The notes under the pieces were generated by a model, which saw nothing but the letters and a program-made list of their open reading frames with translations, had not been told where the DNA came from and searched no databases. 64,000 nt of DNA, taken from assembly GCF_051903065.1 (NCBI RefSeq), contig NZ_CP178438.1, one strand, 5' to 3'. Below, in pieces: positions 1 through 59,284 of the stretch; the stretch's first letter is position 1, and each line of letters starts with the position of its first letter. The position numbers and the translations under genes were made by a program. Source of the stretch: Escherichia coli. Lineage in GTDB: Bacteria; Pseudomonadota; Gammaproteobacteria; Enterobacterales; Enterobacteriaceae.

Positions 1-87
1 TTCACCGCAATGACGTATACCAAAAGCAAAACGTTTAAAACCGAAAATGGTGCCCGTCGCTGGCTGGAAAGAAACTCAGGTGAGTGA
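1..87 (+). CDS. ydfA: 3' end of a small prophage ORF (ydfA-like), truncated by the window edge
   Basis: Frame-1 open from position 1 to TGA at 85-87 (…MTYTKSKTFKTENGARRWLERNSGE*). Position immediately upstream of ydfB/ydfC/dicF matches the K-12 Qin dicA-ydfABC-dicF-dicB arrangement as I recall it. Confidence 0.4.
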   Translation, partial: FTAMTYTKSKTFKTENGARRWLERNSGE

Positions 88-88
88 T

Positions 89-217
89 ATGGATTTCGAC
101 ACAATCATGGAAAAGGCTTACGAAGAATACTTCGAAGGCCTTGCCGAAGGCGAAGAAGCTCTCAGCTTCAGTGAGTTTAAACAGGCGCTTTCCAGTTCGG
201 CAAAATCTAACGGCTGA
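89..217 (+). CDS. ydfB: small prophage protein, 42 aa
   Basis: ATG at 89, 42 codons (MDFDTIMEKAYEEYFEGLAEGEEALSFSEFKQALSSSAKSNG), TGA at 215-217. Below the 60-aa track cutoff. Size and position fit ydfB. Confidence 0.5.
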   Translation: MDFDTIMEKAYEEYFEGLAEGEEALSFSEFKQALSSSAKSNG

Positions 218-246
218 TAAGCGAAACAGCACCGCGAGGAATCAGT

Positions 247-465
247 ATGCAGAAACGAGAACCCGTCATCATCGCGCCAGACTATACCGATGATGAACTT
301 TATGAGTGGATGCGCCAGAAAATTAATGCAGCGCAGGATCTGAAATGGGCTAATGAAGCCAGGGCTAAGCAGGCTGAAAATCTGTCCGCTCTGGAGCAGG
401 ATATCACCAATCTGGAAAAAGCAGCGGCATTAAGCATTGCCAGAATGATTACATACCCGCGTTAG
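247..465 (+). CDS. ydfC: small prophage protein, 72 aa
   Basis: ORF track 247..465 (MQKREPVIIAPDYTDDELYEWMRQ…). Size and position immediately upstream of dicF fit ydfC. Confidence 0.6.
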   Translation: MQKREPVIIAPDYTDDELYEWMRQKINAAQDLKWANEARAKQAENLSALEQDITNLEKAAALSIARMITYPR

Positions 466-805
466 TAGCTAATCAACAAAGCTAAGGTTAGTAATTAAGG
501 AGTTCTCCACGGGTGAGGTGGAGTGCGTGCGCCGGACACGGGTGCGCATCCGGAACTGACAGTTTACTGAAAGGATATTTCCCTGAAAAGTCAGACCATA
601 ACGCGAAAGCGCACGGCGAGGTAGCTGGTTCATAGATAGCCTGTCGTTAAATTTTCATCGACCGTGCGCTTCCGGTTGTGGCAACCCGCGAAATGGCGCG
701 GCGGTAAGTATGGCGGGGTTATTCCTTCCCCGTTGAGGACACCGGGTTGTCAGGTTGACCATACGCTTAAGTGACAACCCCGCTGCAACGCCCTCTGTTA
801 TCAAT

Positions 806-863
806 TTTCTGGTGACGTTTGGCGGTATCAGTTTTACTCCGTGACTGCTCTGCCGCCCTTTTT
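806..863 (+). ncRNA. dicF: DicF antisense sRNA (ftsZ translation inhibitor) with intrinsic terminator
   Basis: Sequence tttctggtgacgtttggcggtatcagttttactccgtgactgctctgccgcccttttt: ggcgg (821-825) pairs with ccgcc (853-857), followed by a T-run at 859-863. Matches the DicF sequence as I recall it and sits between ydfC and dicB. Confidence 0.7.
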
Positions 864-1032
864 AAAGTGAATTTTGTGATGTGGTGAATGCGGCTGAGCG
901 CACGCGGAACAGTTAAAACCAAAAACAGTGTTATGGGTGGATTCTCTGTATCCGGCGTTAATTGTTAACTGGTTAACGTCACCTGGAGGCACCAGGCACT
1001 GCATCACAAAATTCATTGTTGAGGACGCGATA

Positions 1033-1056
1033 ATGAAAACGTTATTACCAAACGTT
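1033..1056 (+). pseudogene. dicB: dicB 5' fragment (first 8 codons, MKTLLPNV) interrupted by IS1
   Basis: ATG at 1033, atg aaa acg tta tta cca aac gtt = MKTLLPNV, the N-terminus of the cell-division inhibitor DicB. The IS1 inverted repeat begins at 1057. Confidence 0.7.
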
Positions 1057-1071
1057 GGTAATGACTCCAAC

Positions 1072-1575
1072 TTATTGATAGTGTTTTATGTTCAGATAAT
1101 GCCCGATGACTTTGTCATGCAGCTCCACCGATTTTGAGAACGACAGCGACTTCCGTCCCAGCCGTGCCAGGTGCTGCCTCAGATTCAGGTTATGCCGCTC
1201 AATTCGCTGCGTATATCGCTTGCTGATTACGTGCAGCTTTCCCTTCAGGCGGGATTCATACAGCGGACAGCCATCCGTCATCCATATCACCACGTCAAAG
1301 GGTGACAGCAGGCTCATAAGACGCCCCAGCGTCGCCATAGTGCGTTCACCGAATACGTGCGCAACAACCGTCTTCCGGAGCCTGTCATACGCGTAAAACA
1401 GCCAGCGCTGGCGCGATTTAGCCCCGACATAGCCCCACTGTTCGTCCATTTCCGCGCAGACGATGACGTCACTGCCCGGCTGTATGCGCGAGGTTACCGA
1501 CTGCGGCCTGAGTTTTTTAAGTGACGTAAAATCGTGTTGAGGCCAACGCCCATAATGCGGGCTGTTGCCCGGCAT
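1072..1575 (-). CDS. insB: IS1 transposase InsB (expressed as InsAB' by -1 frameshift)
   Basis: 167-aa [30 protein letters not shown]…, recognisable as IS1 InsB. Confidence 0.95.
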
Positions 1576-1769
1576 CCAACGCCATTCATGGCCATATCAA
1601 TGATTTTCTGGTGCGTACCGGGTTGAGAAGCGGTGTAAGTGAACTGCAGTTGCCATGTTTTACGGCAGTGAGAGCAGAGATAGCGCTGATGTCCGGCGGT
1701 GCTTTTGCCGTTACGCACCACCCCGTCAGTAGCTGAACAGGAGGGACAGCTGATAGAAACAGAAGCCAC
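1494..1769 (-). CDS. insA: IS1 InsA (repressor / N-terminal part of transposase)
   Basis: 91-aa [46 protein letters not shown]…, recognisable as IS1 InsA with its zinc-finger-like CxxC…CxxC. Confidence 0.95.
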
Positions 1770-1824
1770 TGGAGCACCTCAAAAACACCATCATACACTA
1801 AATCAGTAAGTTGGCAGCATCACC

Positions 1825-2928
1825 GCAAAACAGTTTCCCTCCTCACGCAATCTGGAAAAATTTGGTGAGGCCCGACAAGATTTAACCATAAAAGAACTGG
1901 CTGAAAAATTTCTGGCACTGAAAGAAACTGAAGTCGCCAAAACATCACTCAACACATACCGTGCCGTCATCAAAAATATCCTAAGCATAATCGGTGAAAA
2001 AAATCTTGCCTCATCGATTAATAAAGAAAAATTACTGGAGGTTCGTAAAGAGCTACTGACTGGATACCAGATCCCCAAAAGTAACTATATTGTTACACAA
2101 CCAGGGAGATCGGCTGTAACTGTAAATAATTACATGACAAATCTTAACGCCGTGTTCCAGTTTGGTGTTGATAACGGTTACCTGGCAGATAATCCGTTTA
2201 AGGGGATCTCGCCATTAAAGGAATCAAGAACCATTCCGGATCCTCTTTCGCGGGAGGAATTTATCCGTCTTATCGATGCGTGCAGAAATCAGCAAGCAAA
2301 AAATTTATGGTGTGTTTCTGTTTATACTGGCGTTCGCCCTGGTGAGCTGTGTGCACTTGGATGGGAGGACATAGATCTGAAAAATGGAACAATGATGATC
2401 AGGAGAAATTTAGCAAAAGACCGTTTCACGGTACCAAAAACACAGGCGGGAACCAATCGGGTCATTCATCTTATTAAGCCAGCAATCGACGCTCTCCGGA
2501 GTCAGATGACATTAACGAGACTGAGCAAAGAGCATATCATTGATGTTCACCTCAGAGAGTATGGCAGAACAGAAAAACAAAAATGCACCTTTGTTTTTCA
2601 ACCTGAAGTATCAGCGAGAGTAAAAAATTATGGTGACCATTTTACCGTTGACTCAATAAGGCAGATGTGGGACGCAGCGATAAAACGTGCCGGACTCCGC
2701 CATCGAAAATCATATCAGTCGAGACATACTTATGCCTGCTGGTCGCTGACTGCTGGTGCTAACCCGGCATTTATAGCAAACCAGATGGGCCATGCAGATG
2801 CGCAAATGGTATTTCAGGTATACGGAAAATGGATGTCTGAAAACAATAATGCACAGGTAGCTTTGTTAAATACACAGTTAAGCGAGTTTGCCCCAACCAT
2901 ACCCCATAACGAAGCAATGAAAAATTAA
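1825..2928 (+). pseudogene. intQ: prophage tyrosine integrase, 5'-truncated (open frame of 368 codons continues from the IS1 junction; no start codon until 2134)
   Basis: Reading frame open from the IS1 end to TAA at 2926-2928. C-terminal catalytic domain motifs are visible (…GVRPGELCALGWEDIDL…, …HLIKPAIDAL…, …SRHTYACWSLTAGANPAFIANQMGHAD…). The N-terminus is missing. Confidence 0.8.
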
Positions 2929-3115
2929 TTTAATATTTATCAAATAGTTGACACGTATGACTCTTGAAATCCATAAATTCAAGCGCAGTGCCCAGCCATC
3001 CCGATACTGCTGCTTTCACCAAATCCTTAGTGCTTCTTTCGTGTTTTTCTATTGTCATAATGGTTATCTCTAAAAAAGAGGTAAGATGCGTACTACTTAC
3101 TCGCCGTTATTGGTA

Positions 3116-4135
3116 TTATTCAGAAAAAGTGAGTAAGACTTTGCAGCAATGTTTTTGATCCTGTTCAAATAAACTAATGGCATCAGCAACATGCTGGAAA
3201 TCAAACGTATGGGTAATTAATTTTTCTGGTTTAATTAACCCTTTACTTAACCAGTCGATAACGACCGGAAATTTATTTGCATTTAAGCGTGAAGAGAAAA
3301 TAGAGAGTTCTTTTCCGGTAATTCCTTGCTGAATCACTTCAGACGGTTCACTGGAGAAGCCCATCAATACAATACGTGCCGCTGGAGAAGCCAGCGTTAC
3401 GGCCTCTTTCAGGATAGAAGGATGACAAGCCGCATCAATAATTAATGTCGGCTTTATGCCTTTTTCAGCGAAAATCTCGCCAAGCGGTGTCTGGCTGTTA
3501 TTAATCACCCAGTCAGCCCCGCTCTCTTTCGCTTTTTCCAGTCGTTCATCAATGCGATCGGCAACAATCACATTTTTAACGTTATAGACGCCTTTTAATA
3601 CCTGAACGATCGTCAGGCCGATTGGACCGGCACCATAAACCAGAACGGTATCATTTTCAGTCGGTTGACCATGTCCGGTTACGTTAGCCGCAATGGTAAA
3701 AGGTTCGATCATCACCGCATATTGATCGGCCACTGCTTCAGGAATTTTCCACGCATTTTTTGCCGGAACCACAGCATATTCACTGAAACCACCGTCAACA
3801 TGCACACCTAATACAGCGAGTGTCGTACAAACGTTCGGCTTACCTATAGAGCACGGATAGCAATGACCACAGCTGACCACCGGATCGACAGCAACACGTT
3901 CACCGACTCTGGCGCTTTCCACACCTTCACCCACCGCATCAATGACGCCAAAGAATTCATGTCCAATGACGCGCGGATATTTCGCAAAAGGATTATGCCC
4001 ACGATAAATATGGCTATCTGAACCACAAATTCCGGCAAGTTTTACTTTTACTCGAACTTCACCCGCTGACGGGGTGGGTATTTCACGTTCGATAATCGCC
4101 AGTTGATTCGGTTTTTCAATTAAAATGCTTTTCAT
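3116..4135 (-). CDS. rspB: Zn-dependent alcohol/polyol dehydrogenase-like starvation-sensing protein
   Basis: Start set at the MKSILIEKPNQL Met. GHEF and Cys-rich Zn-binding motifs and a Rossmann GAGPIG are present. Confidence 0.9.
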   Translation of the reverse strand: MKSILIEKPNQLAIIEREIPTPSAGEVRVKVKLAGICGSDSHIYRGHNPFAKYPRVIGHEFFGVIDAVGEGVESARVGERVAVDPVVSCGHCYPCSIGKPNVCTTLAVLGVHVDGGFSEYAVVPAKNAWKIPEAVADQYAVMIEPFTIAANVTGHGQPTENDTVLVYGAGPIGLTIVQVLKGVYNVKNVIVADRIDERLEKAKESGADWVINNSQTPLGEIFAEKGIKPTLIIDAACHPSILKEAVTLASPAARIVLMGFSSEPSEVIQQGITGKELSIFSSRLNANKFPVVIDWLSKGLIKPEKLITHTFDFQHVADAISLFEQDQKHCCKVLLTFSE

Positions 4136-4146
4136 TAACTTACTCC

Positions 4147-5361
4147 TTACCAGTTCCACAGCGTGCCATCTTCCAGACGTGCGACTGGTAGATAAGCAGG
4201 TTCATAGGGATATTTCGCCGCCAGCTTTTCATCGAATTCGATACCAAGACCCGGTTTGTCTCCCGGATGCATATAGCCGTTATCGAAAGTCCAGTTGTGC
4301 GGGAAGACTTCGAGCATTTGTTCGGAATAACCCATGTATTCCTGGACACCGAAATTGGGGACCCACAGATCAAAGTGCAGCGCCGCAGCCATGCAGACTG
4401 GTGACAAATCGGAAGGACCGTGTGAGCCAGTACGTACCTGATACAACGAAGCAAAATCGGCAATCCGGCGCATACCGGTAATTCCGCCTGCATGGGTCAG
4501 CGTGGTGCGGATATAATCGATGAGTTGCTCTTCAATCAGTTGTTTGCAGTCCCAGATGCTGTTGAAGACTTCACCCACAGCGATGGGTGTGACGGTATGT
4601 TGGCGAATGAGACGGAAGCATTCCTGGTTTTCCGCAGGCGTCGGGTCTTCCATCCAGAACATGCGATAATCTTCAATGCTTTTACCAAAGCGCGCCGCTT
4701 CAATAGGCGTTAAGCGATGGTGCATGTCATGCAGCAAATGTTCATTAAAACCAAACTTGTTACGTACCGCGTCAAACAATTTCGGCATGAAATCGAGGTA
4801 TTTCTCCGTCGACCACAGCTGCTCTTCCGGCCACTGTCCTTTGGTTGCGGGTTCATAAGCCAGACCTTTACCTTTCGACATGCCGTAGGTGGTTTTCATA
4901 CCAGGGATTCCGCACTGCACGCGGATGGCTTTGAATCCCAGCTCCTGATGACGGGCATAATCATCCAGAGCTTCATCAATACTGTGACCGGTGGTATGGC
5001 AATAAACCATCACCCCTTCACGAGATGCGCCGCCGAGTAACTGGTAAAGCGGCATGTTGGCAGCTTTGGCTTTAATATCCCACAGCGCCATATCAACCGC
5101 TGAAATGGCCGACATCGTAACCGGACCGCGACGCCAGTAAGCACCTTTATAGAAAAACTGCCAGATATCTTCGATACGGTGCGCATCGCGACCAATAAGC
5201 TGCGGACAAAGGTGATCCTGCAAATAAGAGGCCACGGAAAGCTCACGTCCATTGAGGGTGGCATCCCCAAGGCCCGTAATACCGTCCTCAGTGGTGATTT
5301 TTAATGTGACGAAATTACGCCCCGGACAGGTAACAAAAACTTCAGCCTTTACGATCTTCAT
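4147..5361 (-). CDS. rspA: enolase-superfamily dehydratase (mannonate dehydratase-like) starvation-sensing protein
   Basis: Start set at [17 protein letters not shown]…. Forms a tandem operon with rspB. Confidence 0.9.
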
Positions 5362-15532: not shown

Positions 15533-16789
15533 ATGTTCCGCCGTCTGCTTATCGCAACAGTCGTCGGTATTCTCGCGGCCTTTGCCGTTGCCGGGTTTCG
15601 TCATGCGATGCTGCTACTGGAGTGGTTGTTCCTCAATAATGACTCCGGCAGTCTGGTCAATGCAGCGACAAACCTTTCCCCTTGGCGACGGCTGCTAACT
15701 CCGGCGCTCGGCGGACTGGCGGCGGGTTTGTTGCTGATGGGCTGGCAGAAATTTACCCAGCAACGCCCTCATGCGCCGACCGATTATATGGAAGCGTTGC
15801 AAACCGAGGGTCAGTTTGATTACGCAGCAAGCCTGGTTAAATCGCTTGCCTCTCTGCTGGTAGTAACCAGCGGCAGTGCAATTGGTCGCGAAGGTGCGAT
15901 GATTCTTTTAGCTGCCCTTGCCGCCTCCTGTTTTGCCCAACGTTTTACGCCACGCCAGGAGTGGAAATTATGGATCGCCTGTGGGGCCGCGGCGGGAATG
16001 GCTGCGGCCTATCGTGCCCCGCTTGCTGGCAGTTTATTTATAGCCGAAGTGCTGTTTGGCACTATGATGTTGGCCTCTCTCGGCCCGGTGATTATTTCCG
16101 CCGTCGTGGCATTGCTGGTTAGCAATCTGATTAATCATAGCGACGCGTTACTCTACAGCGTACAACTCTCAGTGACGGTTCAGGCTCGTGACTATGCGCT
16201 GATTATCAGTACAGGTGTGCTGGCAGGTCTGTGCGGACCACTGTTGTTAACGTTAATGAACGCCTGTCATCGTGGATTTGTAAGTCTCAAGCTTGCGCCG
16301 CCCTGGCAACTGGCACTGGGCGGCTTAATCGTGGGTCTGCTTTCCCTGTTCACACCTGCAGTGTGGGGCAACGGCTATAGCACCGTACAATCCTTTTTAA
16401 CCGCCCCGCCACTGTTAATGATCATTGCCGGGATCTTCCTCTGTAAACTGTGTGCCGTGCTGGCGAGTAGTGGTTCCGGCGCGCCCGGTGGTGTCTTTAC
16501 ACCGACGCTATTTATCGGTCTTGCCATTGGCATGTTGTATGGTCGTAGCCTGGGATTATGGTTCCCTGATGGCGAAGAAATTACGCTTTTACTCGGATTG
16601 ACCGGGATGGCGACACTGTTGGCGGCAACCACGCACGCGCCGATTATGTCGACGTTGATGATATCTGAAATGACCGGGGAGTATCAGCTACTCCCCGGTT
16701 TATTGATTGCCTGCGTAATTGCGTCGGTAATTTCGCGGACGTTACACCGTGACTCTATCTACCGCCAGCACACTGCGCAGCATAGCTAA
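15533..16789 (+). CDS. clcB: ClC-family voltage-gated chloride channel / H+-Cl- antiporter
   Basis: Start at [17 protein letters not shown]. ClC motifs GSAIGREG and GxFxP (GGVFTP) are present; 418 aa. Confidence 0.9.
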
Positions 16790-17561: not shown

Positions 17562-18782
17562 TTAACCCTGCAACAGACGAATCAACAAAGAACCGTTATA
17601 CATCGCGTCTTTTACCAGCGCAGCGCCTGCCATCGTACCCTGGTTAGAAAACTGAGTACTCTCAACGCTAATGTGCTGACTATACGCAGGAAGGGCCTGC
17701 TGACGGATGCTATCTGAGATGACCGGGAAGAGGATATCTGCCGCTTTACTTAACGGTGAGCCAATCAGTATTTTTTGTGGGTTAAATAAATTCACCATGA
17801 TGGCAAGAATGCGCCCTACATGCGCGCCCACCCCGGTAATGATGTCTTTTGCCAGCAGATCGCCGCGCAATGCCGCCTGACACAATGAGTCCACGGTTAA
17901 CGGTTGCCCATGTAACATCGAGCTCATGGATTGATTGAGACGCAGCTGTGCCAGCTCAAGAATACTGTCCACACTGGCGATGGTTTCGAGGCAGCCGTGG
18001 TTCCCGCAATAACAGCGTTTACCATATGGGTCTACCTGTGTGTGACCTATTTCCACGAGGCTACTGCTGCCTGCGTGTAGCAGATGACCATCGGTAATGA
18101 CGCCCGCCCCCACGTTGTGATCGATAACCACCTGAATCACATCGCGCGCCCCGCGTGAGGCACCAAACAAGGCCTCTGCCATCGTCCATGCGCTGATATC
18201 ATGCTGTATATAAACCGGAACGCCGGTATGCTGCTCCAGAGCCTCGCCGAGCGGCATCTCTTTTACATCCTCGTAGAACGGCATGCGATGTACAATGCCA
18301 TTTTCCGTATCAATAATTCCCGGCAGGGTTATGGCAATCGAAGTTAGACGCTCAAGTTTTTTCTGGTGGCGGATAAAAAACTGATCGATATGGGAAATGA
18401 TACGATCCAGCAATGGCGAGTCATCTTTTAACGCCAGTTCCTGCGACTCTTCCACCACCAGTTTGCTGCTCAGATCGCGCAGAGCAAGGAAAATCTCCCC
18501 GCGACTAATGCGCAGAGAAAGATAGTGCCAGGCTTCAGTTTCAACCACCAGCCCCACCGCCGGACGGCCACGGTTCCCCGCTTCTTTGATTTCCAGCTCT
18601 TGCACCAGGTGTGCTTCGAGCATCTCACGGACAATTTTAGTGATACTGGCAGGAGCCAGCTGCGCCAGACGGGAAAGATCGATACGCGAGACTGGACCAA
18701 GCTGATCAATCAGGCGATAAACCGCGCCCGCGTTGGTCTGCTTTATTTGATCAATGTGCCCAGGCTGGTTTTCAGCAACCAC
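17562..18782 (-). CDS. mlc: ROK-family global repressor of PTS/glucose uptake genes (Mlc/DgsA)
   Basis: 406 aa, MVAENQPGHIDQIKQTNAGAVYRLI… with the ROK Zn motif CYCGNHGCLE. Confidence 0.95.
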   Translation of the reverse strand: MVAENQPGHIDQIKQTNAGAVYRLIDQLGPVSRIDLSRLAQLAPASITKIVREMLEAHLVQELEIKEAGNRGRPAVGLVVETEAWHYLSLRISRGEIFLALRDLSSKLVVEESQELALKDDSPLLDRIISHIDQFFIRHQKKLERLTSIAITLPGIIDTENGIVHRMPFYEDVKEMPLGEALEQHTGVPVYIQHDISAWTMAEALFGASRGARDVIQVVIDHNVGAGVITDGHLLHAGSSSLVEIGHTQVDPYGKRCYCGNHGCLETIASVDSILELAQLRLNQSMSSMLHGQPLTVDSLCQAALRGDLLAKDIITGVGAHVGRILAIMVNLFNPQKILIGSPLSKAADILFPVISDSIRQQALPAYSQHISVESTQFSNQGTMAGAALVKDAMYNGSLLIRLLQG

Positions 18783-18794
18783 CGCATACTCCCT

Positions 18795-18817
18795 ATATTT
18801 TCGCGCTCCGAAATAAT
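18795..18817. promoter_or_regulatory. candidate Mlc/NagC-type operator (TTTCG-N5-CGAAA palindrome) in the mlc promoter region
   Basis: tatattttcgcgctccgaaataa is a 23-bp AT-flanked palindrome immediately upstream of the mlc start. mlc is known to be autoregulated. Confidence 0.4.
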
Positions 18818-18916
18818 CTGTAGGCTATGGTGAAGCACTTCAATACGTGTCGTCAAATTTTTACTTAGGCATGTGATTAACAGCACATTTTTCGGGCTTT
18901 TTCGCTGAAATTTCCC

Positions 18917-19810
18917 TCACCTGAGAGCATTCAGCAGATGAATACGAAAGTTACGCGCAGCTGGACTTTGTTCATGATGTTTCGGCCAGACCAACCACAT
19001 TTCAGAAACCGCATCCTCTTCAGCAATCGGCACCCAGCGCATTTCGTTGAGCTGAACACGTTTAAATGACGCAGGCAAAATTGAAACACCCAGACCGGCG
19101 GAAACCAGACCGATGATGGTCATTGCCTCGCCCACCTCCTGAGTGATGACGGGCGTCAAATGGTAACGTCGCATCAGCCCGAGAATATCGTCATACAGCC
19201 CTGTCCCGACGTGCGGATCAAAAAAGACAAAGGGTTCTTTCGCCAGTTCAGCCAGCGTTACATTCGGGTTATTTGCCAGGGGATGATCGTGCGGGATCAT
19301 CGCCATAAGCGGTTCATGGACGATGACTGCGTGTTCAAGCGTCTCCGGTAACGCTGTGTTACGCAGCAATCCCATATCCAGCGTTCCTTCAATGAGCGGA
19401 GCGATTTGCTCGCGAGTGTTCATTTCGCGGGTTTGTAAATGGACATCGGGATAATCTCGGCGAAACAGCGATAACGTATCGGACACCGCCCGAATAAAAG
19501 GAGCCGACGAAGTAAAACCAATGCGCAACTCCCCCGCTTCACCCTGATGCAGTCTTTCAGCGCGAGCGGCAGCGTCATCCACCATAGACAGGATTTGCCG
19601 ACTATCTGCAAGAAACTGTTTTCCTGCTGCCGTCAGCAATACACTGCGATTGGTTCGTGCCAGCAGTCGGGCACCAATTTGTTGCTCCAGCGCCTGAATC
19701 TGCTGACTTAGCGGCGGTTGCGAAATATTCAGGCGGGCAGCGGCGCGCCCGAAATGCAGCTCTTCCGCAACAGCAACAAAGTAACGCAGATGACGAAGTT
19801 CAATATTCAT
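18917..19810 (-). CDS. ynfL: LysR-family transcriptional regulator
   Basis: 297 aa with N-terminal HTH (RHLRYFVAVAEELHFGRAAARLNISQPPLSQQIQALE). Confidence 0.9.
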   Translation of the reverse strand: MNIELRHLRYFVAVAEELHFGRAAARLNISQPPLSQQIQALEQQIGARLLARTNRSVLLTAAGKQFLADSRQILSMVDDAAARAERLHQGEAGELRIGFTSSAPFIRAVSDTLSLFRRDYPDVHLQTREMNTREQIAPLIEGTLDMGLLRNTALPETLEHAVIVHEPLMAMIPHDHPLANNPNVTLAELAKEPFVFFDPHVGTGLYDDILGLMRRYHLTPVITQEVGEAMTIIGLVSAGLGVSILPASFKRVQLNEMRWVPIAEEDAVSEMWLVWPKHHEQSPAARNFRIHLLNALR

Positions 19811-36806: not shown

Positions 36807-36918
36807 GGCCTGCTCCTCACCTGATTAATTTTTTCTTTCTGTTTTGCTTTCGTTAAGTAACTTTTAGCTCACTCATTATTTACTATTTGATAACAAATGT
36901 TTGGTCTTTCGTGCCATG

Positions 36919-54723: not shown

Positions 54724-54995
54724 GCTCTGCGCTTGTAGAGCGACATGCTGCCCGTCCGGGTGCATGTTTTCACTTGTCGGATATTAAACCAGGAATTTAT
54801 TATCTTGTTCGGTGTTGTTGGTGATTGTCAGGGATAGTAAAGCGCGTTACTCTTTTCATAGCAGTTTTTCATCCCTGAATATTTGCCATCAGCGCATTCT
54901 TATTATTGTAATAACACAAGCGTTCACTTTTGGTGAAATTTTATCATCACTAATAATACCTACCCCTTTGGTATTAATTATTTTATGGACCTTTT

Positions 54996-55737: not shown

Positions 55738-55813
55738 TAACCTTACAGTTAACCTGTTGTCGCCTGCTCTGGATTAACGGATAATAGGCGGCTTTTTTAT
55801 TTCAGGCCGAAAA

Positions 55814-56394
55814 ATGACTGACTACCTGTTACTGTTTGTTGGAACTGTACTGGTCAATAACTTTGTACTGGTCAAGTTTCTCGGTCTCTGTCCGTTTATG
55901 GGAGTTTCCAAAAAGCTGGAAACCGCGATGGGCATGGGGCTGGCAACAACGTTTGTGATGACGCTGGCGTCTATTTGCGCCTGGCTTATCGATACGTGGA
56001 TTTTGATCCCACTTAATCTGATTTACCTGCGCACCCTGGCATTTATTCTGGTGATTGCTGTGGTCGTGCAGTTCACCGAGATGGTGGTGCGCAAAACCAG
56101 CCCGGTGCTTTACCGTTTGCTGGGGATTTTTTTGCCGCTTATCACCACCAACTGTGCCGTGCTCGGCGTGGCGTTGCTGAATATCAATCTCGGGCACAAT
56201 TTCTTGCAGTCGGCGCTGTACGGTTTTTCCGCCGCTGTCGGTTTTTCGCTGGTGATGGTTCTCTTCGCAGCCATCCGCGAACGCCTTGCTGTGGCTGATG
56301 TCCCGGCACCTTTTCGCGGTAATGCCATTGCGTTAATTACCGCAGGTCTTATGTCTCTGGCCTTTATGGGCTTTAGTGGTTTGGTGAAGTTGTA

Positions 56395-56395: not shown

Positions 56396-59284
<2,889 letters not shown>

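Follow-up and report, generated by a model that had tools for sequence, protein, structure and literature searches.

The mlc locus and its upstream region

The window, which is the whole 64,000-nt stretch of Escherichia coli DNA analyzed in this study, carries a 23-bp quasi-palindrome directly upstream of mlc (dgsA). The features of this region and their coordinates are collected in Table 1. The gene adjoining the palindrome encodes Mlc and not NagC. The Mlc-type RGRP linker (R71-G-R-P74) was read from its translation, and the protein passed the NCBIfam Mlc equivalog model NF049930 with 741.4 bits (cutoff 530) and failed the NagC model NF047937 with 418.4 bits (cutoff 650). The LysR-type gene ynfL, which is co-directional with mlc, ends at 18917, and the intergenic region is 134 bp long. 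No intrinsic-terminator-like structure was detected between the ynfL stop and mlc (18783-18916) in a scan of positions 18700-19000. Since the two same-strand genes lie 134 bp apart with no such structure between them, transcription of ynfL may continue into mlc.

The palindrome and its surroundings, 901 nt in all, matched O157:H7 and O145 strains with 100% identity. This stretch occurred in 5,421 of 5,426 complete E. coli genomes, where it is annotated as ynfL and mlc. One of the 5,421 matches was on a record classed as plasmid rather than chromosome. Several other features of the window were also recorded. Downstream of mlc, clcB (+) and bioD/bidA (-) are convergent and their 3' ends overlap by 48 bp (16742-16789), as they do in K-12. 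Positions 1-5360 hold a degraded prophage remnant with dicB, ydfD, an excisionase gene and a frameshifted integrase fragment, and an exonuclease gene of this remnant is interrupted by an IS1203 insertion. The rsxC gene (56966-59262) is frameshifted according to the annotation of the identical O157:H7 record.

Table 1. Features of the mlc upstream region, in window coordinates; for minus-strand motifs, positions in gene orientation are given in brackets.
Feature	Position	Strand	Description
mlc (dgsA) CDS	17562..18782	-	406 aa, GTG start, ROK-family repressor; open reading frame and RefSeq annotation
Shine-Dalgarno AGGGAG	18789..18794 (18794-18789)	-	abuts the promoter-distal edge of the operator; within the 12-nt gap
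Mlc operator, 23-bp quasi-palindrome	18795..18817	-	positions -11 to +11, centre 18806
Exact inverted-repeat core TTTCG-N5-CGAAA	18799..18813	.	symmetry axis at base 18806
Conserved block AAGTGCTTCACCATAG	18825..18840 (18840-18825)	-	nearly invariant in 81 taxa; holds the weak -10-like CACCAT (18832-18827)
Putative -35-like hexamer TTGACG	18851..18856 (18856-18851)	-	18 nt upstream of CACCAT
CRP-like site, core TGTGATTAACAGCACA (18872-18887)	18869..18890	.	one mismatch from TGTGA-N6-TCACA

In mlc orientation, the operator 23-mer is ATTATTTCGGAGCGCGAAAATAT, and the + strand of the centred 23-mer is ATATTTTCGCGCTCCGAAATAAT. The element had been pointed out in an earlier note made from the sequence alone. 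The coordinates in that note were exact for the centred 23-mer, and the sequence is present there. However, the string it quoted, tatattttcgcgctccgaaataa, corresponds to 18794-18816 and is shifted by 1 nt against those coordinates. Its description of a TTTCG-N5-CGAAA core with AT-rich flanks was confirmed, with A or T at 10 of 10 flank positions (+/-7 to 11). In the whole operator, 7 of the 11 mirrored pairs are complementary, which ties with the best of the other native sites. The operator lies upstream of mlc in gene orientation, and its distance from the GTG start had been given as 13 bp, whereas the actual gap is 12 nt (18783-18794). The sequence directly before the mlc start reads cagATTATTTCGGAGCGCGAAAATATagggagtatgcgGTG in gene orientation, and each position of the Shine-Dalgarno hexamer was kept in 75-81 of 81 taxa.

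Published rules and weight-matrix test

Mlc and NagC sites are similar quasi-palindromes in which TT/AA at +/-5 and 6 are the only totally conserved positions (Brechemier-Baey et al., PMC4288165). It was also reported that +/-11 is A or T in all Mlc sites and C or G in high-affinity NagC sites, and that the RGRP motif of the Mlc linker reads the A/T at +/-11 (PMC4288165). The rule of Lim et al. is TT-9 bp-AA with AT-rich sequence at +/-7 to 11 and imperfect dyad symmetry (PMC1874608). The operator is a 23-bp quasi-palindrome with a single central base as its axis, and its arms are AT-rich. TT at -6 and -5 and AA at +5 and +6 (TT-N9-AA) are present in the operator and were invariant in 81 of 81 aligned taxa. 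With A at -11 and T at +11, the operator agrees with the Mlc rule and departs from the C/G rule of high-affinity NagC sites.

For mlc and the other genes established as Mlc targets, the K-12 promoter sequence was filtered by the strict published rule. Six K-12 sites were picked, of which ptsG has two and ptsH, manX, malT and mlc have one apiece, which agrees with the published count of 'six native Mlc sites' (PMC4288165). A symmetrised position weight matrix (PWM) was then built from the five non-mlc sites, namely ptsG (two), ptsH, manX and malT, so that the training set comprised only five sites. Two of the training sites have independent confirmation in published work: a ptsG training site serves as the 'Mlc-binding site' oligonucleotide in one study (PMC2936295), and the ptsH training 23-mer appears in the same register in a FITBAR table (PMC3098098).

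With this PWM, built without the mlc site, 18795-18817 ranked first of 63,978 window positions. The operator scored 15.9-17.4 bits depending on the manX register, and the training sites scored themselves at 15.7-22.4 bits. The earlier note had proposed a matrix of known Mlc sites as the test of its reading, with a poor score speaking against it; the operator proved to be the top-scoring 23-mer in the window. A PWM score at the level of the operator was reached anywhere in 64 kb by 9-23 of 200 block-shuffled windows. The bare core pattern was matched once in the 64-kb window against an expected 0.15, and at least one match occurred in 15 of 100 shuffles. The bare palindrome on its own is only mildly unusual. 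From the shuffle and PWM figures, we estimate a probability of the order of 1e-4 that such a site falls by chance within the 134 bp upstream of mlc. No second operator was found within 18818-19250 (about 430 bp upstream), where the best PWM score was 8.5 bits.

Conservation of the operator across Enterobacteriaceae

One genome per species was scanned. The scan gave 80 loci with an mlc orthologue, whose proteins were 85-99% identical, from Escherichia, Citrobacter, Salmonella, Enterobacter, Klebsiella, Raoultella, Kosakonia, Leclercia and other genera. In all 80 loci, the best match of the non-mlc PWM in the 200 nt upstream was the same element, and its centre was 23-25 nt before a conserved GTG. 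Among the 81 aligned sequences, the operator columns -10 to -3 (TTATTTCG) and +5 to +9 (AAAAT) were invariant, and substitutions clustered in the central spacer (-2 G/A, +2 G/T). Position -11 was A in 29 and T in 52 sequences, position +11 was A in 74 and T in 7, and G or C was never seen at either position.

These outer positions bear on the possibility that the site is primarily a NagC operator, through which the paralogous N-acetylglucosamine repressor controls mlc. The logos of NagC and Mlc have been called 'essentially indistinguishable', and the overexpressed proteins cross-repress each other's targets (PMC4288165). However, this cross-regulation was absent at physiological protein levels (PMC4288165). 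High-affinity NagC sites have C/G at +/-11, whereas this site has A/T there in all 81 taxa, and the literature credits repression of mlc to Mlc itself. We therefore consider primary control by NagC very improbable.

The mean information content of the operator was 1.84 bits, the highest of any segment in the 81 sequences. The corresponding values were 1.68 bits for the CRP-like 22-mer, 1.47 bits for the interval between operator and CRP-like site, 0.57 bits upstream of the CRP-like site and 1.72 bits for the first 30 coding bases of mlc. Conservation covers the whole 110-bp promoter region, operator included, and for this reason conservation alone does not isolate the operator. Within E. coli, a 61-nt segment that covers the operator together with the core promoter and the Shine-Dalgarno sequence was mismatch-free in 5,411 of 5,421 genomes.

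In five loci (L029, L030, L031, L033 and L038, from Kosakonia sp., Phytobacter spp. and an Enterobacteriaceae MAG), the core was one base shorter and lay about 12-34 nt upstream of mlc. These loci read TTTCG-N4-CGAAA or TTTCG-N4-CAAAA, and they still fit TT-N9-AA because the right arm has a run of four A's. The operators of L029 and L030 outscored the E. coli site, with 21.4 bits.

The palindrome could also act at the RNA level, as a UUUCG/CGAAA hairpin in the 5' UTR before the Shine-Dalgarno sequence that modulates translation or stability instead of, or besides, serving as an operator. The predicted centroid structure contains a 5-bp hairpin ending 5 nt before the Shine-Dalgarno sequence. 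However, the folding z-score of the UTR was +0.48, and 138 of 200 shuffled sequences folded at least equally well. The stem has 5 bp only, and the conserved AT-rich flanks out to +/-11 are unneeded for a hairpin but required by the Mlc rule. In addition, +3 and +4 are each substituted in 3 taxa among the 81 sequences, and these rare substitutions are uncompensated, with -3 and -4 invariant. On these grounds, namely folding no better than shuffled sequence, uncompensated changes and the conserved flanks, we rejected the hairpin as the main function, and we regard an RNA-level role of this kind as highly unlikely.

Other matches in the window

The strict rule was matched three times in the window. 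One further match, 17769-17791 (TT-N9-AA, all flanks A/T), lies inside the mlc CDS, 1,026 bp downstream of the operator. Only 18 of 80 orthologues retain it, and the median score was 6.9 bits. We rejected it as an auxiliary or looping operator; it encodes NLFNPQKI and decays at synonymous sites, and so it looks fortuitous. The decay of this match indicates that conservation of the operator is not a generic property of the mlc locus.

The third strict-rule match, 54936-54958 (AAATTTTATCATCACTAATAATA), is about 38 nt upstream of ydgT (cnu) and was outside the eight best PWM matches; it is probably just AT-rich promoter DNA. The second-best PWM match in the window was 55795-55817 (TTTTATTTCAGGCCGAAAAATGA), which scored 14.4-15.5 bits with TT-N9-AA and A/T at +/-11. 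It overlaps the rsxA start codon in the ydgK-rsxA intergenic region. Another PWM runner-up, at 36875 between fumC and fumB, is without the invariant AA. The runner-ups at 55795 and 36875 were both rejected, as their scores fall within the range of shuffled sequence.

We also considered whether the operator itself could be an AT-rich palindrome that arose by chance in promoter DNA and has no specific binding function. The bare core turns up in 15% of shuffles, and among the three strict-rule matches the intragenic one at 17769, at least, is evidently fortuitous. Nevertheless, an independently built PWM ranked the site first in the window, and the site fronts the repressor's own gene. It was retained with invariant half-sites in 80 of 80 loci, whereas the look-alike at 17769 decays, and autoregulation of mlc is reported in the literature. 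A chance origin is accordingly extremely improbable, and the pattern of conservation in effect refutes it.

Proposed promoter layout and the CRP-like site

According to the literature, mlc has two weak promoters, P1 and P2, sigma-32 also reads P2, and CRP-cAMP regulates the mlc promoters. No consensus sigma-70 promoter was found in a scan of 18700-19000, which fits the 'very weak' mlc promoter of the literature. TTGAC of the -35-like hexamer was kept in 80-81 of 81 taxa and is followed by a freely varying 10-nt stretch. The conserved block downstream of it would form the P1 core and might also belong to the promoter read by sigma-32. This block is conserved beyond the apparent need of a weak sigma-70 -10 element (CACCAT). 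Sigma-32-like motifs, TTGAAG (18843-18838) and CACCATAG, were also noted at the block, and the reported use of the mlc promoters by both sigma-70 and sigma-32 may account for them.

From this layout, we infer that P1 starts near 18819-18820; the operator would then extend over about +3 to +25. Shin et al. reportedly placed the P2 start in 2001 about 12-13 nt downstream of the P1 start. The P2 start would then lie near 18807-18808, inside the operator, and the operator would overlap the -10 region of P2. Genome-wide Cappable-seq tables showed no TSS near mlc in either coordinate version. The TSS table of Kim et al. 2012 spans this part of the chromosome and likewise has none near mlc, and a Salmonella sigma-factor study contained no positional data for the mlc promoter.

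The axis of the CRP-like site (18879.5) is 73.5 bp upstream of the operator centre. The CRP-like pattern alone was not above chance, with 1 found against 2.16 expected in the window. Its half-sites GTGC and TCACA were invariant in 81 taxa. The site fits the reported control of mlc by CRP-cAMP. With a P2 start near 18807, it would stand at about -72.5, a class I activating position. CRP is said to activate P2 in the work of Shin et al., and the class I position fits this activation.

The two promoters also permit a reading at two levels, in which the palindrome is an operator in DNA and, in the P1 mRNA, forms a hairpin 5 nt before the Shine-Dalgarno sequence. The P2 mRNA would start inside the palindrome and could not form this hairpin. 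If this were true, the sigma-70 and the sigma-32/CRP promoters would yield transcripts of different translation efficiency. Such a double function could help to explain why C-4, G-3 and the left arm as a whole show no variation in 81 taxa, though they vary among the six E. coli Mlc sites. We consider it an improbable addition to the operator function. A related conjecture is that Mlc on the operator could form a roadblock for transcription entering from ynfL, as the scan of 18700-19000 showed no terminator between the two genes.

The palindrome as the autoregulatory operator of mlc

Mlc represses ptsG, ptsHI, manXYZ, malT and mlc itself according to the literature, which also reports negative autoregulation of mlc and a site at mlc to which the Mlc protein binds. 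The autoregulation suggested in the earlier note agrees with both reports. Its proposal of a ROK-family (Mlc/NagC-type) operator was likewise upheld by the published rules, the first rank in the PWM scan and the presence of the element in 80 of 80 loci, and A/T at +/-11 marks the operator as Mlc-type. We conclude, with a probability of about 95%, that the 23-mer at 18795-18817 is the known autoregulatory operator of E. coli mlc. We take it to be the K-12 mlc (dgsA) Mlc site of Decker, Plumbridge and Boos 1998 and of Shin et al. 2001. That the exact 23-mer would be the footprinted site is suggested by the sequence rules, the PWM and conservation. A full-text literature search with the operator sequence in both orientations gave no match, and none of the papers covered gives its coordinates.

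With the palindrome as the operator, simple steric repression is the most likely mechanism. Mlc would bind the 23-bp quasi-palindrome with its helix-turn-helix reading TTATTT/AAATAA-type half-sites and its RGRP linker reading A/T at +/-11. The operator would lie just downstream of the weak P1 start and overlap the -10 region and the start of P2. Bound Mlc would thereby block RNA polymerase sterically at both weak promoters, and this block would keep the Mlc level low and self-limiting.

While glucose is taken up, Mlc is captured by dephosphorylated EIICB-Glc (PtsG) (PMC1874608). According to the literature, this capture takes place at the membrane and leaves the mlc operator vacant, together with the operators of ptsG, ptsHI, manXYZ and malT. 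The conserved CRP site about 73 bp upstream would add control by cAMP, and sigma-32 can use P2.

Comparison with known Mlc and NagC operators

Since about 1998-2001, the standard model of glucose/PTS regulation in E. coli has included negative autoregulation of mlc via its operator. The mlc operator is already known and is one of the six classical Mlc operators. The value of the present analysis is that of a positive control, in which a real, experimentally established transcription-factor site was recognised from raw sequence alone. It also adds a modest comparative refinement: within Enterobacteriaceae the half-sites do not vary, +/-11 is always either A or T, and one operator stands at a constant spacing from the start codon.

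The K-12 operator is the identical 23-mer at the same position relative to mlc, and the K-12 coordinate is the window coordinate + 1,649,782, which puts the operator at 1,668,577-1,668,599 in K-12. The flanking genes are also the same, with ynfL upstream and bioD/bidA and clcB downstream. No difference from the K-12 operator was detected, and the strain studied here is O157:H7/O145-like.

The operators ptsG O1/O2, ptsH P0, manX and malT are built like the mlc operator: they are 23 bp long, with TT-N9-AA, A/T at +/-11 and AT-rich arms. In ptsH, manX and malT, as at mlc, CG dinucleotides stand just inside the TT/AA. The mlc operator is single, whereas ptsG has two sites. Unlike the other native Mlc operators, it controls the gene of the repressor itself. 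With 15.9-17.4 bits, against self-scored training sites at 15.7-22.4 bits, it stands towards the bottom of the Mlc-site family by score.

NagC and Mlc are paralogues with near-identical helix-turn-helix motifs (PMC4288165). The NagC operators, including nagE-nagB, glmU, chiP, galP and others, have the length, the quasi-palindrome and the invariant TT/AA at +/-5 and 6 in common with the mlc operator. However, high-affinity NagC operators have C/G at +/-11, whereas the mlc operator has A/T there in every taxon examined.
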